Below, in pieces: positions 3,109 through 47,324 of a stretch of DNA of 60,110 bases. The stretch is from Bacteroidota bacterium. Lineage in GTDB: Bacteria > Bacteroidota > Bacteroidia > UKL13-3. The translations under genes and the position numbers were made by a program. Under the pieces are notes generated by a model. It saw only the letters and a program-made list of their open reading frames with translations, was not told where the DNA came from and made no database searches. The stretch's first letter is position 1. Each line of letters opens with the position of its first letter. The DNA is taken from assembly GCA_034439655.1 (NCBI GenBank), contig JAWXAU010000163.1, forward strand, positions 1 through 60,110, read 5' to 3'.

Positions 3109-3310
3109 CTTTGTGAAAAAATAATTATATCGGTGCATGGTTGCATGTCTTCACCAACCTTCAAAGCAATGTTTTATGAAATAGAAAAAAATTGTCGCAT
3201 TCAAAAACTCAAAATTGCAAATAATTATCTGCCATTATTTCCTATTATGGACTAAGGTGATTAATTTGCAAGCGTTTTCAAAAAACAATTATATAACAAT
3301 AAACAAAATT

Positions 3311-3916
3311 ATGCAAAAGTACAAAAAATTTATTCCTTGGGTAATCCTCGGTATTCTCATCATTTGGTGTGTGAGCGTTTACAATGGCTTTGTAAGTAAA
3401 GATGTAGTATTAGGCGAAAAGTGGGGAAAGGTACAAAGTGCTTATCAATTGCGTGCTGACAAAATTAAACAGTTAGTAAGTGTAGTAAAGGGATCTGCTA
3501 AGTTTGAGAAAGAAACATTATTGGGTGTGGTAGAAGCACGTGCAGGAATGGCCCGCCAAGCAACCTTCGACCCAACTAAAGGAACCGCTGAAGACTTTAA
3601 AAAATATGAAAGCATACAAAGAGACTTGATGTCGAACCCTAAAACAGGTTTCAATATTGTTGTCGAGCAATATCCGCAGCTTCGCACTACCGATCAATAC
3701 AAAGCTTTGATGTATGAAATAAGTGAAACTGAAAATATGATTAAAACAGAGCGTGATCAATTTACGATTGCTGTAAAAGAATACAATACTGCTACACGTC
3801 GTTTCCCTGGTAATTTATTTGCAAGTATATTTGGCTTTAGCCAAAAAGAATTTTTTGCAGCCGATACTGGTACCGACAAAGCCCCTATTGAGAGTCTGAA
3901 AGAACTTGAAAAATAA
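3311..3916 (+). CDS. lemA: LemA family protein
   Basis: N-terminal TM helix, WGKVQSAYQLRAD, VVEQYPQL, YNTATRRFPGNLFASIFGF. Start moved from the ORF-track start to ATG 3311. Confidence 0.9.
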   Translation: MQKYKKFIPWVILGILIIWCVSVYNGFVSKDVVLGEKWGKVQSAYQLRADKIKQLVSVVKGSAKFEKETLLGVVEARAGMARQATFDPTKGTAEDFKKYESIQRDLMSNPKTGFNIVVEQYPQLRTTDQYKALMYEISETENMIKTERDQFTIAVKEYNTATRRFPGNLFASIFGFSQKEFFAADTGTDKAPIESLKELEK

Positions 3917-3921
3917 TTAAG

Positions 3922-4350
3922 GTGGCATTCTTAAACCCAGAACAAGAACAGCAAATTGAAAAAGCTATAGGTTTGGCCGAAAACCAAACCTCTGGCGAAA
4001 TTCGTTTGCACACAGAACAGTTCTGCGACCTAGATGATACCTTGCAACGTGCATTGGAAGTGTTCTACGATTTGGAAATGGATAAAACCCAACAACAAAA
4101 CGGAATACTTATATATATAGCTTACGAGGACAAAAAAATGGCCATAGTAGGCGATGAAGGTATCAATAATGTAGTTCCTAAAAATTACTGGGATATTATT
4201 ATACAAGAAATGAAGTCCGATTTTGCTGCAGGTAATTTTGAAGAAGGAATCTGCAAAGCCGTGCATGAAGTAGGCGAAAAATTAAAACAATACTTCCCTT
4301 GGAACAGTGATGACAAAAACGAACTTTCTGACAAAATATCCAACCATTGA
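3922..4350 (+). CDS. TPM domain protein
   Basis: AENQTSGEIRLH, NGILIYIA...AIVGDEGIN; canonical position after lemA. Confidence 0.9.
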   Translation: MAFLNPEQEQQIEKAIGLAENQTSGEIRLHTEQFCDLDDTLQRALEVFYDLEMDKTQQQNGILIYIAYEDKKMAIVGDEGINNVVPKNYWDIIIQEMKSDFAAGNFEEGICKAVHEVGEKLKQYFPWNSDDKNELSDKISNH

Positions 4351-9371: not shown

Positions 9372-10298
9372 CTTACTTTTCACTTTCTCCTCCTCCTTTA
9401 CTTCTACTTTCACTTCCGTTTTTTCTTCTGATTCGATTACAGGAATTTCGGGTTCCATATCGGCAAGTAAATCCAATAATTGTATTAATTTACTTTGCAT
9501 TTCTGAACGGTTGATTATCATATCTAGAAAACCATGCTCCAATAAAAATTCAGAACTTTGGAAACCCTTCGGTAAATCTTTTCCTATTGCTTCTTTTATA
9601 ATTCGTGGTCCTGCAAATCCTATCAGGGCTTCTGGCTCTGCTATATTAAAATCGCCAAGCATGGCAAATGATGCAGTAACACCGCCCGTTGTGGGATCAG
9701 TTAAGTATGATATATAAGGAACTCCTGCTTTGGCAAGTAACGCAAGCTTTGCAGAAGTCTTCGCCATTTGCATCAGCGAAAAAGCAGCCTCCATCATCCT
9801 TGCTCCACCCGATTTGCTAATAACCATCACGGGTATTTTATGCTCACGTCCATAGTCAATAGCCCTAGCAATTTTTTCTCCCATCACCGAGCCCATGGAC
9901 CCGCCGATGAAAATAAAATCCATGCAAGCCACTACCAATTTATGCCGACCGATATCACCCACAGCTACACGCAATGCATCGTTCAAGCCCGTTTTACTAA
10001 TGGTGTCCTTCAGCCTACTTTCGTAACTCTTAGTATCATTAAATTTGAGGGGGTCAGTTGGTAATATATTCGAGAACAACTCCGTGAAATTCTCACCGAA
10101 CAATACCTCAAAATATTCTGCTGAACCAATCTTTGTATGGTAGTTACAATTAGGACAAACCCATTTATTATTGATATGGTCTACTACGTCCATCACTTTT
10201 TTACAGCGAGAACACTTATGCCACAAGCCCTCGGGCGTGGATTTTTTATCTTTGGTAGAAGTGGTAATTCCTTCTTTAACGCGTTTAAACCAACTCAT
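9366..10298 (-). CDS. accD: Acetyl-CoA carboxylase carboxyltransferase beta subunit
   Basis: PEGLWHKC..C...C..C zinc finger, GGSMGSVMGEKI, SGGARMMEA, DPTTGGVTASFAMLGD, FLLEHGFLD. Confidence 0.96.
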   Translation of the reverse strand: MSWFKRVKEGITTSTKDKKSTPEGLWHKCSRCKKVMDVVDHINNKWVCPNCNYHTKIGSAEYFEVLFGENFTELFSNILPTDPLKFNDTKSYESRLKDTISKTGLNDALRVAVGDIGRHKLVVACMDFIFIGGSMGSVMGEKIARAIDYGREHKIPVMVISKSGGARMMEAAFSLMQMAKTSAKLALLAKAGVPYISYLTDPTTGGVTASFAMLGDFNIAEPEALIGFAGPRIIKEAIGKDLPKGFQSSEFLLEHGFLDMIINRSEMQSKLIQLLDLLADMEPEIPVIESEEKTEVKVEVKEEEKVKSKL

Positions 10299-37931: not shown

Positions 37932-38420
37932 TTATAATAGTTCTTCAAATTTTCCCAATTTTTCTTTCAGTACTTGTCTGCCACGGAATATATATACTTT
38001 TACTTGCGACAGGCTAAGGTTGGTCATCTCGCTTATTTGCTCATAACTATAGCCCTCATAATCCCTGAGTAATATTACAGAACGTTGCACATCGCTCAGT
38101 TCTGATACAGCTTGATCGATAATCTCCTTTACACCTGTGTAATGGCTGGGTGTATGCGTATGGTCGAATTCATTCACCTCGTCCCAATTAGCTTTCTTTT
38201 TTTCACGCCGTATTAAGTCTATCATGGTATGATATGCTGTAGTATATAAATACGATTTGCATTTGTCAAACTCTACAATGTCGTTTTTCAACCACATTTT
38301 TTCAAACGAGTCTTGAACAATGTCCTTTGCTTTATCCTCATCTCTGATGTTTTTAAGGATAAACCGATAGACACCGTCTGAATACAAATCGACACATTTG
38401 TTAAATTCTGTCGCAGTCAT
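37932..38420 (-). CDS. ECF RNA polymerase sigma factor
   Basis: AKDIVQDSFEKMW, VILLRDYEGYSYEQI, VKVYIFRGR. Confidence 0.93.
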   Translation of the reverse strand: MTATEFNKCVDLYSDGVYRFILKNIRDEDKAKDIVQDSFEKMWLKNDIVEFDKCKSYLYTTAYHTMIDLIRREKKKANWDEVNEFDHTHTPSHYTGVKEIIDQAVSELSDVQRSVILLRDYEGYSYEQISEMTNLSLSQVKVYIFRGRQVLKEKLGKFEELL

Positions 38421-38513: not shown

Positions 38514-39533
38514 ATGCTGCTACAGGTAAATATACCATTGCAATCATTGAACACCTTTGGAATCAATGCTTTTGCTAAATATTTTGTTGAAATAAATACT
38601 ATAGAATCTGCTCAAGAATTCTTTGCCGAAAAGAAATTTGACACAGAAAAGAAACTCATACTGGGCGGTGGCAGCAATATCCTCTTCACGAAAGATTATG
38701 ATGGTATCGTTATCAAAAATAATATTATCGGCATTGAAAAAATACAAGAAGACGAAAGCCATGTATTGCTAAAAGCCAATGCTGGCAGCACTTGGCATCA
38801 ATTAGTATTACACGCTGTTGCAAATAATTGGGGAGGGGTCGAAAACCTTTCACTAATTCCGGGCCTCTGCGGTGCCGCACCCATGCAAAATATTGGTGCC
38901 TACGGTGTGGAGCTCAAAGATGTATTTGAAAGTTTGGAAGCATTGAATATCGAAACCAACCAAATACAAACATTCACACACGCCGATTGTGAGTTTGGCT
39001 ACCGTGAGAGCGTGTTCAAAAACAAACTTAAAAACCAGTTCCTCATCCTTTCCATTACTTTAAAACTAAACAAGAAACCAATATATAATACTTCCTACGG
39101 TGCTATCCAAACCACCTTGGAATATATGGGCATTATTGAACCTACCGTCAAATCCATCAGCGATGCGGTTATCCAAATTCGCAGCAGCAAACTCCCTAAC
39201 CCTGCCGAATTGGGCAATGCAGGTAGCTTTTTCAAAAACCCTGAGATACCCATAGGACAATACGAAAAATTACAACTGCAATACCCTTTATTACCCAATT
39301 ATAAAGGCTCAATACCCAACCATCTAAAAGTGCCCGCAGGTTGGCTTATTGAGCAGTGCGGCTGGAAAGGGAAAGTGGTAGGCAATACAGGTTCACACAA
39401 GTTCCAAGCACTCGTATTGGTAAACTATGGCAATGCTACAGGTGCCGAAATATATAAGCTCGCCCAAGACATCATTGCCAGCGTAAAAGATAAATTTGAT
39501 ATTGTTTTAAAAGCCGAGGTGAATTTGGAATAA
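38514..39533 (+). CDS. murB: UDP-N-acetylenolpyruvoylglucosamine reductase
   Basis: NTFGI, GGGSNILF, GAAPMQNIGAYGVE, GNAGSFFKNP, QALVLVN. ATG 38514 lies 4 nt after TATTTTTG. Confidence 0.97.
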   Translation: MLLQVNIPLQSLNTFGINAFAKYFVEINTIESAQEFFAEKKFDTEKKLILGGGSNILFTKDYDGIVIKNNIIGIEKIQEDESHVLLKANAGSTWHQLVLHAVANNWGGVENLSLIPGLCGAAPMQNIGAYGVELKDVFESLEALNIETNQIQTFTHADCEFGYRESVFKNKLKNQFLILSITLKLNKKPIYNTSYGAIQTTLEYMGIIEPTVKSISDAVIQIRSSKLPNPAELGNAGSFFKNPEIPIGQYEKLQLQYPLLPNYKGSIPNHLKVPAGWLIEQCGWKGKVVGNTGSHKFQALVLVNYGNATGAEIYKLAQDIIASVKDKFDIVLKAEVNLE

Positions 39534-39672
39534 GGAAGCCGCCTAGGTCTCTCTTTGCACTTGACTTCCTCTCTGAGCCTCTTGCAGAGGACGTAGAGGC
39601 TACATCGCATAAACAGACGCTGAGTCCCTGCCACGCTCATACTTCGCTGCAGGAGACTTAGCTGCGAAGGAC

Positions 39673-39745
39673 CTTGCCCAAGATATTATAGCAAGCGTAA
39701 AAAAAAAATTGATATTGATTTAAAGCTGAGGTGAATTTGGAGTAG
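39673..39745 (+). pseudogene. Degenerate second copy of the murB 3' end
   Basis: Aligns codon-by-codon with 39459-39533; mostly synonymous changes plus two 1-bp deletions. Confidence 0.88.
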
Positions 39746-39768
39746 AGACCCTTCCAATGCAACGTCTA
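39742..39768. repeat. Degenerate GTAG-type REP-like element
   Basis: GTAGAGACCCTTCCAATGCAACGTCTA resembles the GTAGAGACGTTGCA..TGCAACGTCT REP type. GTAGAGAC recurs at 47820. Confidence 0.55.
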
Positions 39769-39839
39769 TTTTCGAATACCAATTTAGTGAACTTATTATA
39801 AATCATAATCATTACCTTTGCAAAAATAAACAATAGCTT

Positions 39840-40841
39840 ATGTTGCGTTCAACCTTACTTATTTTCACTATCATATTTTTAAATATGAATACTTCAATAG
39901 GTCAAGTAAACCTCTCAAAAGGTCTGGTAGCTTACTTCCCCTTCGAAGGAAACAGCTTCGATTCTATCAGCCCCAACGCTACCAATAATAATACCGGAGC
40001 CTTGTTAACTCAAAATCGTCAAGGTAGAAAAAGTAAAGCAATGGATTTCCTAGCTTCCAATGAAAACTATATAGACGTTGGAACAAATCTTTCCTATTTT
40101 CCTGTTAGTATTTCTGTATGGATTATGCCCCGATACTGCCCCAATATCGGAGTTATTTTCTCTAATGAATATAATTTATACCAATGGACAACTACCGCAA
40201 TGGAACTTATGCAATTGGCTGATGGCACCATTCGTTTTGGTATGGGAAATTCAAGCAATGGACAATCATATAAATATATTGAATCTGCAAATCAAGTGAA
40301 ATACGATGGTTCCTGGTATCATATCGTGGCAACCTGCGATCAAAATTACAACTGTGAGATTTATATTGATAAAGTACGAGATAGAACAGGCAAATTGTCA
40401 TTGGGCAATTTCGTTACCTGCATCAACAATGCAAATATAGGAGCACGACCTATAGCAGCCTTAGTACAAGGAGGTATGCAGGGCCATTTTTATAATGGAG
40501 TAATGGATGAATTACGTATTTACAATAGAGTGCTTGACACCAGCGATATCGATGCGTTATTCAATCTAGATTCCTCCACACTAGCCGCTGTCCCTTATAT
40601 TGAGACAGCCGAACCAAATATCAATATAACTAAATTAAATGGAATTATAAATATCCTATCTGATCTGCAAATAGAAAAGGTGAAAATATATGATATGATG
40701 GGTAGACAAGTTTACACAAAAACAGTAAATGCTCTTGCTACACAAATAACTGATATGTCAAACCAAAACGGGAACAACTGCTACATTATCGAAATCCTTT
40801 GCAAAAACAATCTGCCCGTTCGCCAAAAAATAATACTGTAG
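39840..40841 (+). CDS. LamG-like jellyroll protein with T9SS CTD
   Basis: GLVAYFPFEGN, WYHIVAT, YNGVMDELRIYNRVL; CTD IYDMMGRQV...YIIEI...KIIL; TACCTTTG at 39813. Confidence 0.87.
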   Translation: MLRSTLLIFTIIFLNMNTSIGQVNLSKGLVAYFPFEGNSFDSISPNATNNNTGALLTQNRQGRKSKAMDFLASNENYIDVGTNLSYFPVSISVWIMPRYCPNIGVIFSNEYNLYQWTTTAMELMQLADGTIRFGMGNSSNGQSYKYIESANQVKYDGSWYHIVATCDQNYNCEIYIDKVRDRTGKLSLGNFVTCINNANIGARPIAALVQGGMQGHFYNGVMDELRIYNRVLDTSDIDALFNLDSSTLAAVPYIETAEPNINITKLNGIINILSDLQIEKVKIYDMMGRQVYTKTVNALATQITDMSNQNGNNCYIIEILCKNNLPVRQKIIL

Positions 40842-41108: not shown

Positions 41109-44100
41109 TTAGTATTTAATCAACCTAACCGTCGATGACTGTTCGCCTTTGGCTAAGTGGAGAATATAAACACCCGCTGCCTTGTCGCTCAAATCAACTG
41201 TATATATGTTCTTGTTCAAATAAGAAACAGTTACCACGATTTGTTTGCCCGCTATGTCAGTAATATATAATTGTTTCACCTCAACACCCGCTGGCATCTC
41301 AATATTAAACACGCCTTGCGATGGGTTGGGATATACTTTTACTAATAAATTGTTTGTAGTTGCTATGACACCTCCCCAAACTACTGTAGATTTAACTGAC
41401 ATGCCCTTGCAGCCATTTGCATCGGTCACCTCCACAGTATAGTCGCCGTTACTATATACTTTCAGTTTCTGTGTGGTGGCTCCTGTTATGGCTACACCAT
41501 TTTTGTACCATTGATAGGTACTGAACGCCGTTGTAGATAATTCGTTGTTAGGTATGTCCTGTGTGATTGTTGGTACTGGAAGTGGATTTACAAACACATT
41601 CACTGCCGCAGTGGTGGCTTTGCAACCATTATTGTCAGTTATCTTGGCAGTATAAGGGCCAGAAGCTTTTACAAATATCGGATTGGCGGTTGTGGTTAAC
41701 ACATTGGTGTTAAGCATCCAAGAAACGCTGCTGAGACCTGTATTTGTATTGGTTGCAGTAAGACTAACAGAGTCTCCGTTGCATACAGTACTACTGCCCG
41801 CTGCGGTTAATGATGGACTGGGTGCCGTGTGCAAAGACAAGCTTATTGAACTGCTAGAGGTAGCTGTACAACCGCCGTTATTAATCACCTCTGCCGTATA
41901 AGTGCCTGCACCGCTAATATATAAGAATGAGTCAGTTCCTGTACTGATATTATTTCCATTCAATTTCCACTGATAGGTAAATGAACCTGTATCCTGAGGC
42001 GAAACACTTACTCTCATGCTATCACCAGGGCAAATTGTAGAACTTGCGTTACCGTTCAAGGTAGGAATAGTAGGAATTGGTTTGTATGCAACCACCACTG
42101 CTGTCGAGGTGCTTTTACAACCATTGGCATTGGTAACTTTCACGGAATAAGAACCATTGGTAAATACTGTTAAGCTGCTGGCAACTGCTCCACTTATTAC
42201 ATTCCCGTTTTGCATCCACTCATAGGTATAGCTTGCGTTATTGATCGCATCTATATAAACAGTATCCATGCCGCAAGCTGTTGGATTGCCTTTTAGCGTA
42301 ACACTTGCATTTGGCAATGAGTCTATTATAATATTTGCTGCCGCAGATGCTGTTAAACAACCATTTGTATTGGTTATTGATACTTGATAATTACCTGTTG
42401 CTTTTGCATAGTAAACAGAATCTGTAGCACCATTAATGCTAGTTGCGTTCATCCACCATTGGTAAGTTAAACCACTTCCGGGTGTTGTGCTAAGTTTAAG
42501 ACTATCACCCATACATTTGATACCCGTGCCTATATATGAAACATTGGCAGTGGGTCTAGAATATACCGTAAGTTTTGAAGAACTGGAAAGTGCTGCACAA
42601 CCTGATGCCTTATCTTGCACCACTACCATATAAGTGCCCGATGTTTTTGCATAATATATGGAATCGGTAGCACCTTGTATTACTGTATTATTGAACAACC
42701 ATTGGTAGTTATTCGCACTACCACCCTGGGCGGTAAGTGCTGAACTATCGCCTTGGCAGAAAGTAATTTGACCCACGCTAAAAGCCGCGGTGGGGGCGGT
42801 ACCCACTTTTATGGTGATGGTATCTGAATTTAGGTCGCAACCACTATAATAGTTATCTGCAACATTGAGGTAGTAATCTCCAGCTTGTGTAGCATAGAAC
42901 ACCGAGTCGGTGGCACCACTAACAGGAGAACCATTAAAATACCACTGGAAATCGCTGGTATTTTTACTGTCAACGCCCGAGAGTTTGATGGAATCGTTAG
43001 CACATATACTTGTTGTGGGTAGAAATGATAAAATGGGAACTGGGTTAGTTTCATCAAAGCTCAAGTTCTGCAAAGTATCGTTAAAACCATTAGAGTCGTT
43101 GTGGTAACTGATATAAGGTCGGATATAATAAGTGCCAATGTCGGACATGTCGAACTTGTTAGTGATATCAATGGTCATTGCATCCTTAGGGTTAAATTTA
43201 CTACCCGTTACGGCCACAGGACCATAAGTAATTATATTGCTATTTGGGTCGGTCACTTCTGCGGCCACCCATGCAGTATCTTTAGTGAGGTCTATGGTGT
43301 CAATACCCATGTTCTTAATGGAGACTGATATGGTCTGATTGTATCCGCCCAAGCAAGCTACCGCAACGGGCGATAAAAGTTTGTTGAGCGAGAAGTCCTG
43401 CAAGGTCTTGGCGTTATACTCATCTGCACCTATGTCGGGCGTTGTGCTGCTGCGGCTGTCGTCGTCTATGTCTACAGAAACTCCCAGAGCATCACCACGG
43501 TTGTCTAATTGAGTACCCGAGGCATGAAGGTCGGATGCAGAGTAATGGTAAGGGTCGCCGTCAACAGACTGGCCTCCCCCTCCGCTAGGATATGCTACTT
43601 GGTAGTTGGTAGTATTATAACTCTTTGCTCCTAAAAGTACAAGACTTGTATCTGCTGCATTATAATAGTTATTATAGTTTACGCTGTCGGGGAGAGTTGA
43701 GTTTCCTGTGATCTCCATGGCAACTGCGTTTACTGCTTTTGCATTGTTGATGGCAAAAGTATTGTTTTTGAACTGAGTTCTTAACATATAGCCTGTTACA
43801 TAAAGAGCTCTGTGTGAAGACCCGGTGGCCGTAGCTATTGAAACAGTATTGTGAAAATAATTCCAGTAATAACCCTGATTAATATGGATACCGTAAACTA
43901 TGCCAGTACTTGTAAAATTCCCTCCTACCATATTGTTGAACAATTCTCCACGAGCTACATTGCCTCCATATACATATTGAATGAAGATGCCGTACTGGCC
44001 AACATTATTAATAAAGTTGCCTTTTACTTCGTAGTATGCTCCAGATACATTTGAGGTAGCGTTACTGTTATATATATAGATACCTGCAGAATTGTTCGCA

Positions 44101-47100
44101 CTGCCCGAACGGTTCTGTACCTTGTTGTTCAATATTTTTTCAGCATGGCTGCTGGTAGCATATATGCCAGCATAATATGCGTTGCTTATGTCGTTATTTC
44201 TTATATAAGTAATACTTGAAGCTATATTCGAGTTGGAATGAATACCATAATATCCTCCTATTATAATATTGCTGTCAATATAGTTTGCGTCGTTCGAGCC
44301 AGCAGAATTTATAGTGGTGGCATTACCATTAATTACCAATGCGGCAAAATTAGTTCCTGTAGCAGTGGCAGCCGATCCGCTGCATTCTATTTTGCACTTG
44401 GCAAATTTGTTGAAACTTGAGTTCAAAATGTTAACAGCCCATGCATTGCTTCCGCTGCTGGCCTGGATACCCATGTCGCGGAAAGTAACATATTTGGAAG
44501 ATGACAACCTAAGTGTATGAGGTGCGGCTGCCGAGCCAGAAAAGGTAAGTATTGTGCTATCGACACCGTGTCCGATGAAGGTTATAGTATTGGTGCTTGA
44601 AACACCATTCACCACCCCAATTTCTACTTGCTCTGTAAAAGTGTCAGCCGAAACATCGAAAACAACAGCACCATTAATACCGCTGCACATCAATTGAGAA
44701 ACAGCAGACTTGAAAGAAATGAAATTAGTAGTTGATGCCGAATTTTTAGAATTGATTGTGTAATTTCCTGACATTACTACACAAAAAGTTTTTTGAACTG
44801 TATCATTCCAATAAAAAGAATCGCCTGCTCGAGCAGTATACACTTTTATATTATTGGCACCTGAACCTATGGTAATATTATTGGTGAAAGTAACTGTGGC
44901 AGTATCGCATATTTGCAAAGCGGGGCTGAAAGTAAATGTTTCACTATCGGCTGCATTTCCGTTAAGTTTATAATATACTTTTAAACTAGAAACAGAATCG
45001 GATCCGCTATTTTTAATTAAAACAGATAAAGGCTGAGAGCCTGCGGAAACAGGAAATATTGGCGTAAGTAACTGCATAACTGCTATATCAGTTTGAGGTG
45101 CTGAGGTATTTTCATCTGCTCCAATATCTGGAGGATTATTGCGGGTTTGTCCATCTATATCTGAGTTCACACTAAGATTAACACCATCGTTACACACATT
45201 TTTTATATGCAAATCGGTATTGGAAACAAAGGCGGGGACTTCAAAGAACGATGATATACCGGCTCCATTCGGATAAGCCGCAGCAGATAAATTACTAGCT
45301 TGATAATTAGTTCCTCCTATTCGCATCACATTAGAATTTGTGGAATACAATATATTATTATCAAAAGCTGATATAGCATTGTTGTTATTGATATCAGCCG
45401 CATAATTTGCACCACCTGTTTGAGCATTGGCAAGTATATTGTTTCTAAAATCTATGCTATTGGTTCCTCCATATACCGAGAAACAAAAACTATTGGTAGC
45501 AGTACCAGTCATATAAAATGAATTGTGGTAAATTTTCCAATTCTGTCCATACATATTGATGCAACCTGCTGTATTGGTATTATTGAATGCCCCGCCGAAG
45601 AAATTATTAAATATCTCCCCAGAAGTATTCACATTGGGCCCACCTTGAGAGGTAAGTATATATATATGATACTGACCCGTACGCAAAAATATATTTTCTT
45701 TTATTTCATGAAAATAACCACTTGATGGAGTTCCGTTAATTAAATATATACAAGAAGAATTGCTATTTCCTGTAGCAAGTTCAAAAGTATTGCCTATAAT
45801 TTTATTGGTTGAAATACTGCTGCTATTTTGATAAATTCCATAATAATACGCATTCTGCAACTTATTGCGTCTGATATAGTTTACCACAGAACCATTGTTA
45901 CCTGCATGAGTAATATTATAATATCCTCCCGTAATCCTATTGGAATCTATATAATTATTATTACAATTAGATGTTCCTGCAAAAGCAGTTTTGGAGCCGC
46001 TAAACACCACACCTGCAGAATTATTGCTTGTAGTGGCTTTATTTAACTCGAGCACACAACTTCTAACGGTATTGTTATTTGCATTGCTCAAGAACATGGC
46101 CACAGCATAAGTAACTCCCGATGCACGTATTCTCATGTTTCGGAAATTTATATATTGAGAACCTTTTAGTAAAACTGTGTGTGCTGCTCCTGCTACACCA
46201 TCATAAGTTAACATGGTGCTAGTTGTATCCACACCTTCAAAAGTAATAGTATTGGTTGAAGATGTTCCTGAAATTAAGGGTATACTAATTTGTTCGTTAA
46301 ATGTATCTGCTGCTATGTTGAATACAACAGGGCCTGATATGCCGCAATTTGTAAGCTTTACAACCGCATCATTAAAGGTTAGAAAATTAGTGGAACCGCT
46401 GCCATTCGAATCAATCGTATATGACCCACTTAACGGGGTAGTACAAATTACAAAAGTGCGACAAATTGTATCATTATTAGCAGTTTGTGTTCCACCGCCG
46501 TTTACATTGTTCAACCACACTTTTATAGTGTACGTGCCGGCCGTCGAAATATTTAATAATGTATCAAATTTTGCGGTATACATACTATCCGCTGCAATGT
46601 TTAGGCCTGATAATGATTGTGTAACCGCTGCATTATTATCTAATTGATATCCGATATCAACAGAAGTCATATTGGTATCTGTCAAGTTAAACATGGAGAA
46701 ACGAATCGTATCATTACCTACATAAAAACTTGTTGGTGAAACGTGTGCATATGCCAAACCATCTTTGGTAGATGAAGTAACAACAAGTGAATAATCTTCC
46801 TGTTCGCCATATCCAGTACTGCAAGGATTGGGAGAGGAACCGCCGCCAAAATCACCTGTAACTCTTATTCTATATACACCAGCCGCTGTGCCCACAGGTA
46901 TACTAAAAGTGTCTGAAACCACAGCATTGGCTGTAGTGGTGGGCGAAGTCCAAACCAATTCAGGGGCAGAGGTGCTAAAAGTGCCATCTAAGTCCCAATC
47001 AATAAAAATCCTTCCGCGAGTTGAATTACCTGTCCCATTTTTTATGGAGAAATTAATAACTGTGCCTGGTACACCTGATACTGCCATGTGAGTATAGTCA

Positions 47101-47324
47101 AAATAGTTAGGTGAATTACCTGTGGCAGTGGTAGAATTGTTTACTGCAGACCCCAATGTTACGTTTTGTAAACCTATACTATAACCTGCAACATTTGTGG
47201 TGCTTGGGATGCAATAATTAGGCTGTGAATAACACTGTGCCTTTGATTGGGAAAAATTCAATATGAATAACAGCATAAGTGCTACTCTAATGAATCCATT
47301 AATTTTTGTGAATTTTCTTTTCAT
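41109..47324 (-). CDS. 2071-aa T9SS surface protein: GEVED-like, two beta-helix modules, Ig/CARDB-like and PKD-like repeats, T9SS CTD
   Basis: Signal peptide; IFIDWDLDG...GEQEDY; duplicated SG.YTI...NF.....AV..L...GI.G.VVF.V.ADTF.EQ; PDIGADE twice; terminal KVYPNPSQG...GVYILHL...VRLIKY. Confidence 0.88.
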   Translation of the reverse strand: MKRKFTKINGFIRVALMLLFILNFSQSKAQCYSQPNYCIPSTTNVAGYSIGLQNVTLGSAVNNSTTATGNSPNYFDYTHMAVSGVPGTVINFSIKNGTGNSTRGRIFIDWDLDGTFSTSAPELVWTSPTTTANAVVSDTFSIPVGTAAGVYRIRVTGDFGGGSSPNPCSTGYGEQEDYSLVVTSSTKDGLAYAHVSPTSFYVGNDTIRFSMFNLTDTNMTSVDIGYQLDNNAAVTQSLSGLNIAADSMYTAKFDTLLNISTAGTYTIKVWLNNVNGGGTQTANNDTICRTFVICTTPLSGSYTIDSNGSGSTNFLTFNDAVVKLTNCGISGPVVFNIAADTFNEQISIPLISGTSSTNTITFEGVDTTSTMLTYDGVAGAAHTVLLKGSQYINFRNMRIRASGVTYAVAMFLSNANNNTVRSCVLELNKATTSNNSAGVVFSGSKTAFAGTSNCNNNYIDSNRITGGYYNITHAGNNGSVVNYIRRNKLQNAYYYGIYQNSSSISTNKIIGNTFELATGNSNSSCIYLINGTPSSGYFHEIKENIFLRTGQYHIYILTSQGGPNVNTSGEIFNNFFGGAFNNTNTAGCINMYGQNWKIYHNSFYMTGTATNSFCFSVYGGTNSIDFRNNILANAQTGGANYAADINNNNAISAFDNNILYSTNSNVMRIGGTNYQASNLSAAAYPNGAGISSFFEVPAFVSNTDLHIKNVCNDGVNLSVNSDIDGQTRNNPPDIGADENTSAPQTDIAVMQLLTPIFPVSAGSQPLSVLIKNSGSDSVSSLKVYYKLNGNAADSETFTFSPALQICDTATVTFTNNITIGSGANNIKVYTARAGDSFYWNDTVQKTFCVVMSGNYTINSKNSASTTNFISFKSAVSQLMCSGINGAVVFDVSADTFTEQVEIGVVNGVSSTNTITFIGHGVDSTILTFSGSAAAPHTLRLSSSKYVTFRDMGIQASSGSNAWAVNILNSSFNKFAKCKIECSGSAATATGTNFAALVINGNATTINSAGSNDANYIDSNIIIGGYYGIHSNSNIASSITYIRNNDISNAYYAGIYATSSHAEKILNNKVQNRSGSANNSAGIYIYNSNATSNVSGAYYEVKGNFINNVGQYGIFIQYVYGGNVARGELFNNMVGGNFTSTGIVYGIHINQGYYWNYFHNTVSIATATGSSHRALYVTGYMLRTQFKNNTFAINNAKAVNAVAMEITGNSTLPDSVNYNNYYNAADTSLVLLGAKSYNTTNYQVAYPSGGGGQSVDGDPYHYSASDLHASGTQLDNRGDALGVSVDIDDDSRSSTTPDIGADEYNAKTLQDFSLNKLLSPVAVACLGGYNQTISVSIKNMGIDTIDLTKDTAWVAAEVTDPNSNIITYGPVAVTGSKFNPKDAMTIDITNKFDMSDIGTYYIRPYISYHNDSNGFNDTLQNLSFDETNPVPILSFLPTTSICANDSIKLSGVDSKNTSDFQWYFNGSPVSGATDSVFYATQAGDYYLNVADNYYSGCDLNSDTITIKVGTAPTAAFSVGQITFCQGDSSALTAQGGSANNYQWLFNNTVIQGATDSIYYAKTSGTYMVVVQDKASGCAALSSSSKLTVYSRPTANVSYIGTGIKCMGDSLKLSTTPGSGLTYQWWMNATSINGATDSVYYAKATGNYQVSITNTNGCLTASAAANIIIDSLPNASVTLKGNPTACGMDTVYIDAINNASYTYEWMQNGNVISGAVASSLTVFTNGSYSVKVTNANGCKSTSTAVVVAYKPIPTIPTLNGNASSTICPGDSMRVSVSPQDTGSFTYQWKLNGNNISTGTDSFLYISGAGTYTAEVINNGGCTATSSSSISLSLHTAPSPSLTAAGSSTVCNGDSVSLTATNTNTGLSSVSWMLNTNVLTTTANPIFVKASGPYTAKITDNNGCKATTAAVNVFVNPLPVPTITQDIPNNELSTTAFSTYQWYKNGVAITGATTQKLKVYSNGDYTVEVTDANGCKGMSVKSTVVWGGVIATTNNLLVKVYPNPSQGVFNIEMPAGVEVKQLYITDIAGKQIVVTVSYLNKNIYTVDLSDKAAGVYILHLAKGEQSSTVRLIKY

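Follow-up and report, generated by a model that had tools for sequence, protein, structure and literature searches.

Genomic islands at tRNA genes are bordered by a direct repeat of the 3′ part of their target, which marks attL and attR, and the gene itself stays intact. A full-size analogue at a protein-coding gene is described in Escherichia coli K-12, where icd and icdC flank the cryptic prophage e14, and also phage 21 (PMC13626634, citing Hill et al. 1989). In this study, we describe a structure of this known kind at the 3′ end of murB, the gene for UDP-N-acetylenolpyruvoylglucosamine reductase, in a 60,110-nucleotide stretch of DNA (the window; contig JAWXAU010000163.1 of assembly GCA_034439655.1, forward strand) from an uncultured Bacteroidota bacterium. 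The last codons of the gene occur twice in this window, on either side of a short, foreign-looking spacer, and it is probable that DNA inserted here introduced an additional, formerly functional murB end derived from a close relative. The novelty lies in the target gene (murB), in the phylum and in the solitary state of the scar, which has no live element adjacent to it.

According to the account of icd and e14 in the source cited above, the prophage lies in the 3′ end of a gene that is essential or central to metabolism and gives it a replacement end, the old end persists on the far side as a C-terminal pseudogene fragment, and the two ends differ mainly synonymously (PMC13626634), all of which resembles the murB scar. 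Prophage e14 measures 15 kb, carries an integrase and still excises, whereas only 139 non-coding nucleotides and no recombinase lie between the two murB ends, and the target is murB of an uncultured Bacteroidota rather than icd of E. coli. A second group of comparable structures is that of the microCIMEs (CIME, cis-mobilizable element), gene-less remnants of 130–220 bp that derive from ICEs (integrative and conjugative elements) or IMEs (integrative and mobilizable elements), which are left by internal deletion with both att repeats kept and occupy the 3′ ends of rpmG, rpsI, fda and rplL among Streptococcus salivarius and S. thermophilus CIMEs (PMC7563491). With these the murB scar shares direct repeats at the 3′ end of an intact gene, the absence of recombination, mobilization or cargo genes, and the size class, since 139 nt lie between its repeats and 212 nt are reached with one repeat included. 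It differs from them in being solitary, with no cognate element found, in its repeats, which are 75 nt long and 16% diverged, and in its phylum. The streptococcal microCIMEs were recognized in tandem with an intact ICE or IME sharing the att site, and solitary ones escape the method, according to its authors (PMC7563491). Finally, in homology-facilitated illegitimate recombination (HFIR), a short foreign insert has a homology anchor on one side only and an arbitrary junction on the other (PMC3240628); the murB scar departs from this scheme in that the outcome duplicates recipient sequence, with neither a donor nor microhomology shown.

Two diverged copies of the murB 3′ end

The genome is a 3.5-Mb metagenome-assembled genome (MAG) of 205 contigs with a mean G+C content of 36.8%, and three other species of the same genus (G001 to G003) were used for comparison and for polarizing changes. 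Tail domains of the type IX secretion system and the closest named matches to its MurB assign the genome to Bacteroidota. The murB gene (38514..39533, + strand) is intact in its open reading frame and translation and encodes 339 amino acids; the Pfam domains FAD_binding_4 and MurB_C were assigned on an identical protein, and amino acid identity to the orthologues of G001–G003 is 81–87%. By alignment and codon table, copy 1 (39459..39533, + strand), the functional end of the gene, comprises the last 24 codons and the TAA stop (codons 316–340), and copy 2 (39673..39745, + strand) is a displaced, decaying pseudo-3′ end of 73 nt with two frameshifts and a TAG stop. Between them lies the spacer (39534..39672, 139 nt), an orphan G+C-rich insert that would represent all or the remainder of the inserted DNA. 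The recurrence had been placed at 39673–39745 by an earlier reading of the sequence alone (the original prediction), and these coordinates are correct. The copies are identical at 61 of 73 aligned bases (84%), a match with an E-value of 1.7e-11 in a self-comparison of the whole 3.5-Mb genome, and both 1-nt deletions of copy 2 fall in homopolymer runs (an A10 run at 39699–39708 and a T/A run near 39720). The homologous stretch runs from a codon boundary (AAG|CTC) to the stop codon; borders of this kind would follow if similarity had been maintained for the coding part only. Since the DNA 3′ of copy 2 is unrelated to the spacer, the layout is A-B-A′-C, and a simple tandem duplication of the head-to-tail form A-B-A-B is ruled out. 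The terminus specific to this lineage reads ...FDIVLKAEVNLE, and a degenerate pattern for the lineage-specific terminus LKAEVNLE* retrieved only three unrelated proteins from JGI metagenomes.

Compared with the borders of tRNA islands, the target here is protein-coding, so that the divergence of the repeats may be read as silent or missense. The two copies differ silently at seven codons (316, 319, 320, 321, 322, 334 and 339) in addition to the TAA/TAG stop, and by missense changes at three (326 GAT>AA-, 328 TTT>ATT and 331 GTT>GAT). The original prediction had listed the silent sites, the stop codons and the two 1-bp deletions correctly but counted two missense changes where three are present. 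The repeat has 14.3 silent and 57.7 replacement sites, and the excess of silent differences is significant (Fisher p=2e-4), a point named beforehand as one on which the prediction could fall. Between the copies, the proportion of differing silent sites (pS) is 0.53 (dS about 0.9) and that of differing replacement sites (pN) is 0.04, and pS over the whole of murB ranges from 0.61 to 0.79 among the four species of the genus.

When the changes are polarized with G001–G003, all three missense changes and both deletions are derived in copy 2, which identifies this copy as a dead relic. Its disabling changes are all A/T-ward or lie within homopolymer runs, a pattern that DNA free of selection should show in a genome rich in A+T. 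In copy 1, at least four of the silent changes (CTC, GAC, ATC and GCC) are derived. The proposal had been to determine the ancestral copy by comparison with sister strains; sister species were compared here, and no sister strain was found in the collections searched. Against a null model in which the end was duplicated in place, with copy 1 constrained and copy 2 neutral, binomial tests were moderately significant, with p=0.015–0.055 unpolarized and p=0.003–0.03 polarized with the three sister species. A neutral copy 2 would be expected to carry about 20 replacement-site changes and three are observed, which argues that through most of the time of divergence purifying selection maintained it as a genuine MurB end. 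Its replacement-site decay, 0.05 per site, corresponds to about 6% of the silent distance, and we therefore conclude that constraint was lost recently. Judged from these substitution patterns, the reading holds that most of the divergence accumulated at a time when each copy was still constrained as a MurB end. The original claim that both copies were once functional termini, and that no simple recent duplication is at hand, is thus sustained by the silent bias, the neutral-copy tests and the A-B-A′-C layout.

The copies also share a history that sets them apart from the rest of the genus, with eight derived codons common to both relative to the other species. Five residues (D329, I330, K333, A334 and E339) occur in both copies and in none of the three species G001–G003, and they are rare among 16 further loci of the family, one of which has A at position 334. 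The presence of lineage-specific residues in both copies indicates that the second terminus came from the organism's own lineage, either a sister species or a long-resident element, and not from a distant donor. The word foreign in the original proposal is overstated for a terminus that carries these five residues.

Silent differences are clumped along the repeat, affecting five of the seven codons 316–322 and three of the 18 later ones (p=0.017), and the first 23 nt of copy 2 are identical (23/23) to murB of G003. The proportion of C-ending codons (C3) in murB is 0.28, against 0.19–0.21 in the three sister species, an excess that extends over the whole gene and that the C-ending codons in the left part of copy 1 match. 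Codons 311–323 of murB form a local cluster in which this species has C where all three others have T or A. A test of left and right halves against changes before and after the split indicates that the halves differ in history (p=0.005). We take the repeat to be a probable mosaic, in which a crossover or the end of a conversion tract lies near codon 322/323.

The spacer and the murB neighborhood

The spacer has a G+C content of 55.4%, compared with a genome mean of 36.8% (sd 5.7 in 139-nt windows), and only 0.1% of windows are as rich, in agreement with the higher G+C originally noted. It is single-copy in its own genome by BLAST, and its 11-mers occur at chance level. The BLASTN search that had been proposed as a check returned no match to it in its own genome, in 118 genomes of the family or in 400 genomes of the class; searches of GenBank phages and PLSDB plasmids likewise gave no match, no exact 20- to 34-mers of the spacer were found in IMG/VR or JGI metagenomes, and local alignment shows it to be unlike the DNA downstream of murB in G001–G003. 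A search of 1.84 billion representative proteins gave no relative for its 41-aa open frame. Apart from a chance hit to a snoRNA, Rfam returned nothing for the spacer at E<=10; the spacer has no tRNA according to ARAGORN and no terminator-like site, with no T run following its longest hairpin, GCTGAGTCCCTGC ... GCAGGAGACTTAGC (39619..39662; arms 39619–39631 with 39649–39662), which is seen in computed folds. A further hairpin is present at 39578–39590. The hairpins named in the original prediction therefore exist, while the spacer as a whole folds only marginally better than shuffled sequences (z=-1.9 on the + strand and -0.6 on the − strand).

The second stop codon had also been assigned to a GTAG element resembling repetitive extragenic palindromic (REP) sequences. 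This assignment failed, as no repeat family of the genome includes the spacer or the DNA that follows copy 2. A palindromic element associated with REP-associated tyrosine transposases (RAYTs) was rejected on the chance-level 11-mers of the spacer and on the count of GGTCTCTC, which occurs only 9 times in 3.5 Mb. The genome does have a true palindrome family, TTCGCCGCGGCGAA, which is absent from the murB scar; this dispersed 14-nt palindrome, unrelated to the scar, has 59 copies in the 3.5-Mb genome (for example at positions 10013, 10071 and 10122 of contig C9).

Upstream of murB lies a gene for a sigma factor of the extracytoplasmic function (ECF) type (37932..38420, − strand; Pfam Sigma70_r2 and Sigma70_r4), a conserved neighbor that occupies the same position in G001–G003 with 93–96% amino acid identity. 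On the downstream side, the far border of a variable interval is formed by a conserved 2071-aa surface protein of the type IX secretion system (T9SS), an adhesin with Pfam GEVED and Por_Secre_tail domains (41109..47324, − strand). Within this interval, copy 2 is followed by an orphan gene with a Laminin_G_3 (LamG) domain in Pfam (39840..40841, + strand; 333 aa as the listed open reading frame, 318 aa in the gene call), a species-specific filler whose nearest relatives among 5.8 billion proteins are 25–27% identical and which was not found in G001–G003.

The content of the interval between murB and the adhesin is different in all four species of the genus. In G001 (contig C172, 477–5167), a tyrosine integrase begins 95 nt after the murB stop codon, an outcome of the proposed check for islands or integrases downstream of murB in relatives. 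It is followed by GmrSD (GmrSD_N), a RiboL-PSP HEPN protein and a DUF559-DEAD helicase before the contig ends inside the island, and this integrase-led island is likely a defense island. In G002, murB is followed by an SRAP gene and then by the orthologue of the large T9SS surface protein. A non-coding stretch of about 441 nt with 46% G+C also lies after murB in this species (contig C17, 3314–3754), with several hairpins that include the genus-wide TTCGCCGCGGCGAA, and it matches no Rfam family at gathering score. G003 has hairpins and an IS200/RAYT-like transposase after murB, and its adhesin orthologue (72% identical) is on another contig (C229), where a DNA cytosine methyltransferase with an N-terminal helix-turn-helix domain (3123–4193) adjoins it. 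We regard this methyltransferase as another mobile or defense-type filler of the same interval. The murB-adhesin junction is a hot spot for foreign DNA in this uncultured Bacteroidota genus.

Origin of the second terminus

We tentatively favor the reading that a site-specific integrative element left this scar. Its attachment site would have been the murB 3′ end, and because it brought a version of the last ~25 codons with it, the essential gene would have stayed whole. Integration would have produced murB with a new end (copy 1, attL-like), the element, the old end (copy 2, attR-like) and the old downstream DNA, in that order. Copy 2, no longer selected, would then have decayed through three A/T-ward missense changes and two homopolymer frameshifts, and a later deletion of the element's interior would have left 139 G+C-rich bases between the repeats, equivalent to the gene-less microCIME state. 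This reading presumes a recombinase that made the insertion, an element body that once existed and a crossover position within the gene end. It is preferred because the layout is that of attL, remnant and attR at the 3′ end of an intact housekeeping gene, because the spacer looks foreign and the locus is a hot spot for islands, and because gene-less remnants of the same size class are documented (PMC7563491), with icd/icdC and e14 as the full-size analogue.

Several observations weigh against such an element. At the scar itself, no integrase, integrase fragment or element-like sequence is left. The collections searched yielded neither a full-length relative with these ends nor an empty site, and a comparison of MurB with 5.8 billion proteins returned nothing between 87% and 100% identity, the species being the only known member of its lineage. 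No repeat of the murB end occurs within 1.4 kb downstream of murB in 19 related loci, and G001, with its integrase beside murB, has no second murB end; an apparent one on its contig C133 proved to be a chance match inside a coding gene. Among the best 80 homologues of the G001 integrase, none adjoins murB; they are found behind a range of housekeeping genes, at the 3′ ends of iPGM, RecO, thiamin pyrophosphokinase, a MutS-domain protein and others, and the two genomes tested have no long gene-end duplication beside these homologues. IMG/VR holds four viral contigs with a murB homologue, and in the two with murB at the contig end the gene is a bystander, with no integration junction. A literature search found no paper on murB as an integration site, and support for a murB-specific integrase is circumstantial. 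Two features of the repeat add to these points. Given the lineage-specific residues, the element's mimic must either derive from the same lineage or have been homogenized by gene conversion, and the left part of copy 1 looks native, which suggests a mosaic that a simple element model does not predict.

The 80 homologues of the G001 integrase are 43–71% identical to it and widespread in Flavobacterium and other Bacteroidota, and for many of them a contig end is no more than a few hundred bases away, a hint of multi-copy elements. A candidate for a second scar in the same genome, an integrase fragment between 115-nt repeats on contig C49, was rejected, as the repeats are DUF805 RNA motifs and not att sites. 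The two motifs (614–681 and 1858–1925; Rfam RF03081, 81 and 74 bits) lie upstream of small membrane-protein open reading frames, and a remnant of 41 codons, containing one stop and matching the C-terminus of the G001 integrase at 73% identity, lies between them at 1501–1623.

In the main rival reading, possible if somewhat unlikely, no recombinase took part. DNA of a sister species would have entered by homologous recombination inside murB on one side and an illegitimate join on the other, as in HFIR, or a whole second murB allele would have been inserted and later largely lost by deletion; both routes would leave a single truncated end and 139 nt of donor downstream DNA. The original prediction had offered an integrated element or a recombined foreign allele, and both fit. 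Recombination of this kind yields the same A-B-A′-C structure and the same silent-biased divergence, needs no integrase where none is present, and agrees with a sister-species donor through the lineage-specific residues of both copies. The C-rich left part of copy 1, continuous with gene-wide usage, fits a native copy 1 or a tract end near codon 322, and short foreign inserts are documented to arise by HFIR (PMC3240628). Set against this, an intergenic stretch of 55% G+C is odd for a donor from a lineage of about 37% G+C, no donor is known, and the left junction shows no visible microhomology (AAG|CTC versus GAC|CTT), a comparison made with the donor sequence not at hand. HFIR events are mostly known for deleting recipient DNA, not for duplicating it, which we also count against this route. 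A mirror form is possible, in which copy 2 and the LamG gene are incoming and copy 1 and the spacer are resident; the orphan LamG gene could have arrived with copy 2.

An old duplication of the last 75 bp in place, with an unrelated 139-nt piece landing between the copies, copy 1 selected and copy 2 drifting, is doubtful. The eight derived codons make the copies each other's closest relatives, all disabling changes are in copy 2, and a lineage-wide drive to C-ending codons could inflate the silent changes of copy 1, as such a history would have it. Nevertheless, two coincident events would be required, with the insert exactly at the junction and the right border coinciding with the stop codon, and copy 2 has far too few changes for its silent distance, as the neutral expectation given above makes clear. 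The different histories of the left and right halves also speak against it.

We consider it improbable that the 222-nt unit at 39534–39755 (ends GGAAG..GGTCTCT and AGAGACCCTTCC) is a non-autonomous mobile element with a mimic of the target end, or a structured RNA in the murB 3′ region. An inverted repeat does follow both stop codons directly: its left arm, GGAAG(CCGCCTA)GGTCTCT (39534..39552, 19 nt), comes immediately after the copy-1 stop, and its right arm, AGAGACCCTTCC (39744..39755, 12 nt), overlaps the copy-2 stop. The arms pair in the minimum-energy fold with a 7-nt bulge and enclose the spacer and copy 2. The score of this repeat is attained in 0.3% of shuffled sequences and in 0.6% of 27-mers drawn at random from the genome (p about 0.003–0.006), values to be read with the site having been picked after the fold was seen, and the CT/AG-rich motifs of the spacer raise the odds of such a repeat. 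In A+T-rich genomes, structured RNAs typically stand out as G+C-rich islands, but the unit is single-copy, with 0 copies in 518 related genomes, belongs to no Rfam family and has a marginal fold.

A chimeric assembly that joined two strain variants of the murB end is very unlikely even for a 205-contig MAG, because the region is 100% identical over 2.5–5.1 kb in GCA_964566565.1 (an NCBI MAG), JGI 3300020596 and the Logan assembly of SRR6448209, so that four assemblies from different pipelines (all of one strain, possibly from the same or related samples) agree base for base, because the junction of the spacer with copy 2 must exist in reads and de Bruijn assemblers cannot invent both unique junctions of a 139-nt spacer, and because copy 2, frameshifted and starting abruptly inside a codon context, is no ordinary strain allele.

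Implications for murB as a proposed landing site

Under the integrative-element reading, there is a slim chance that the murB 3′ end is a live attachment site in the genus and that the remnant, 139 nt between two 75-nt repeats, is a microCIME still able to recombine. If so, an incoming element with a matching integrase could dock there and mobilize neighboring DNA, and the different island in each species (defense genes, restriction-modification, a transposase and an orphan surface protein) would be explained. In a more exotic variant, the 222-nt unit bounded by the inverted repeat would itself be a miniature element with a mimic of the target gene's end.

The murB scar reveals no new mechanism. 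It suggests that solitary micro-scars, which published surveys by their own account cannot detect, can be found through diverged gene-end repeats. On the favored reading, the scar shows an essential gene surviving as a landing site, where the incoming spare end is used and the old end rots, and, with a protein-coding target, it records its own history, since the balance of silent and missense changes tells how long each copy was selected.

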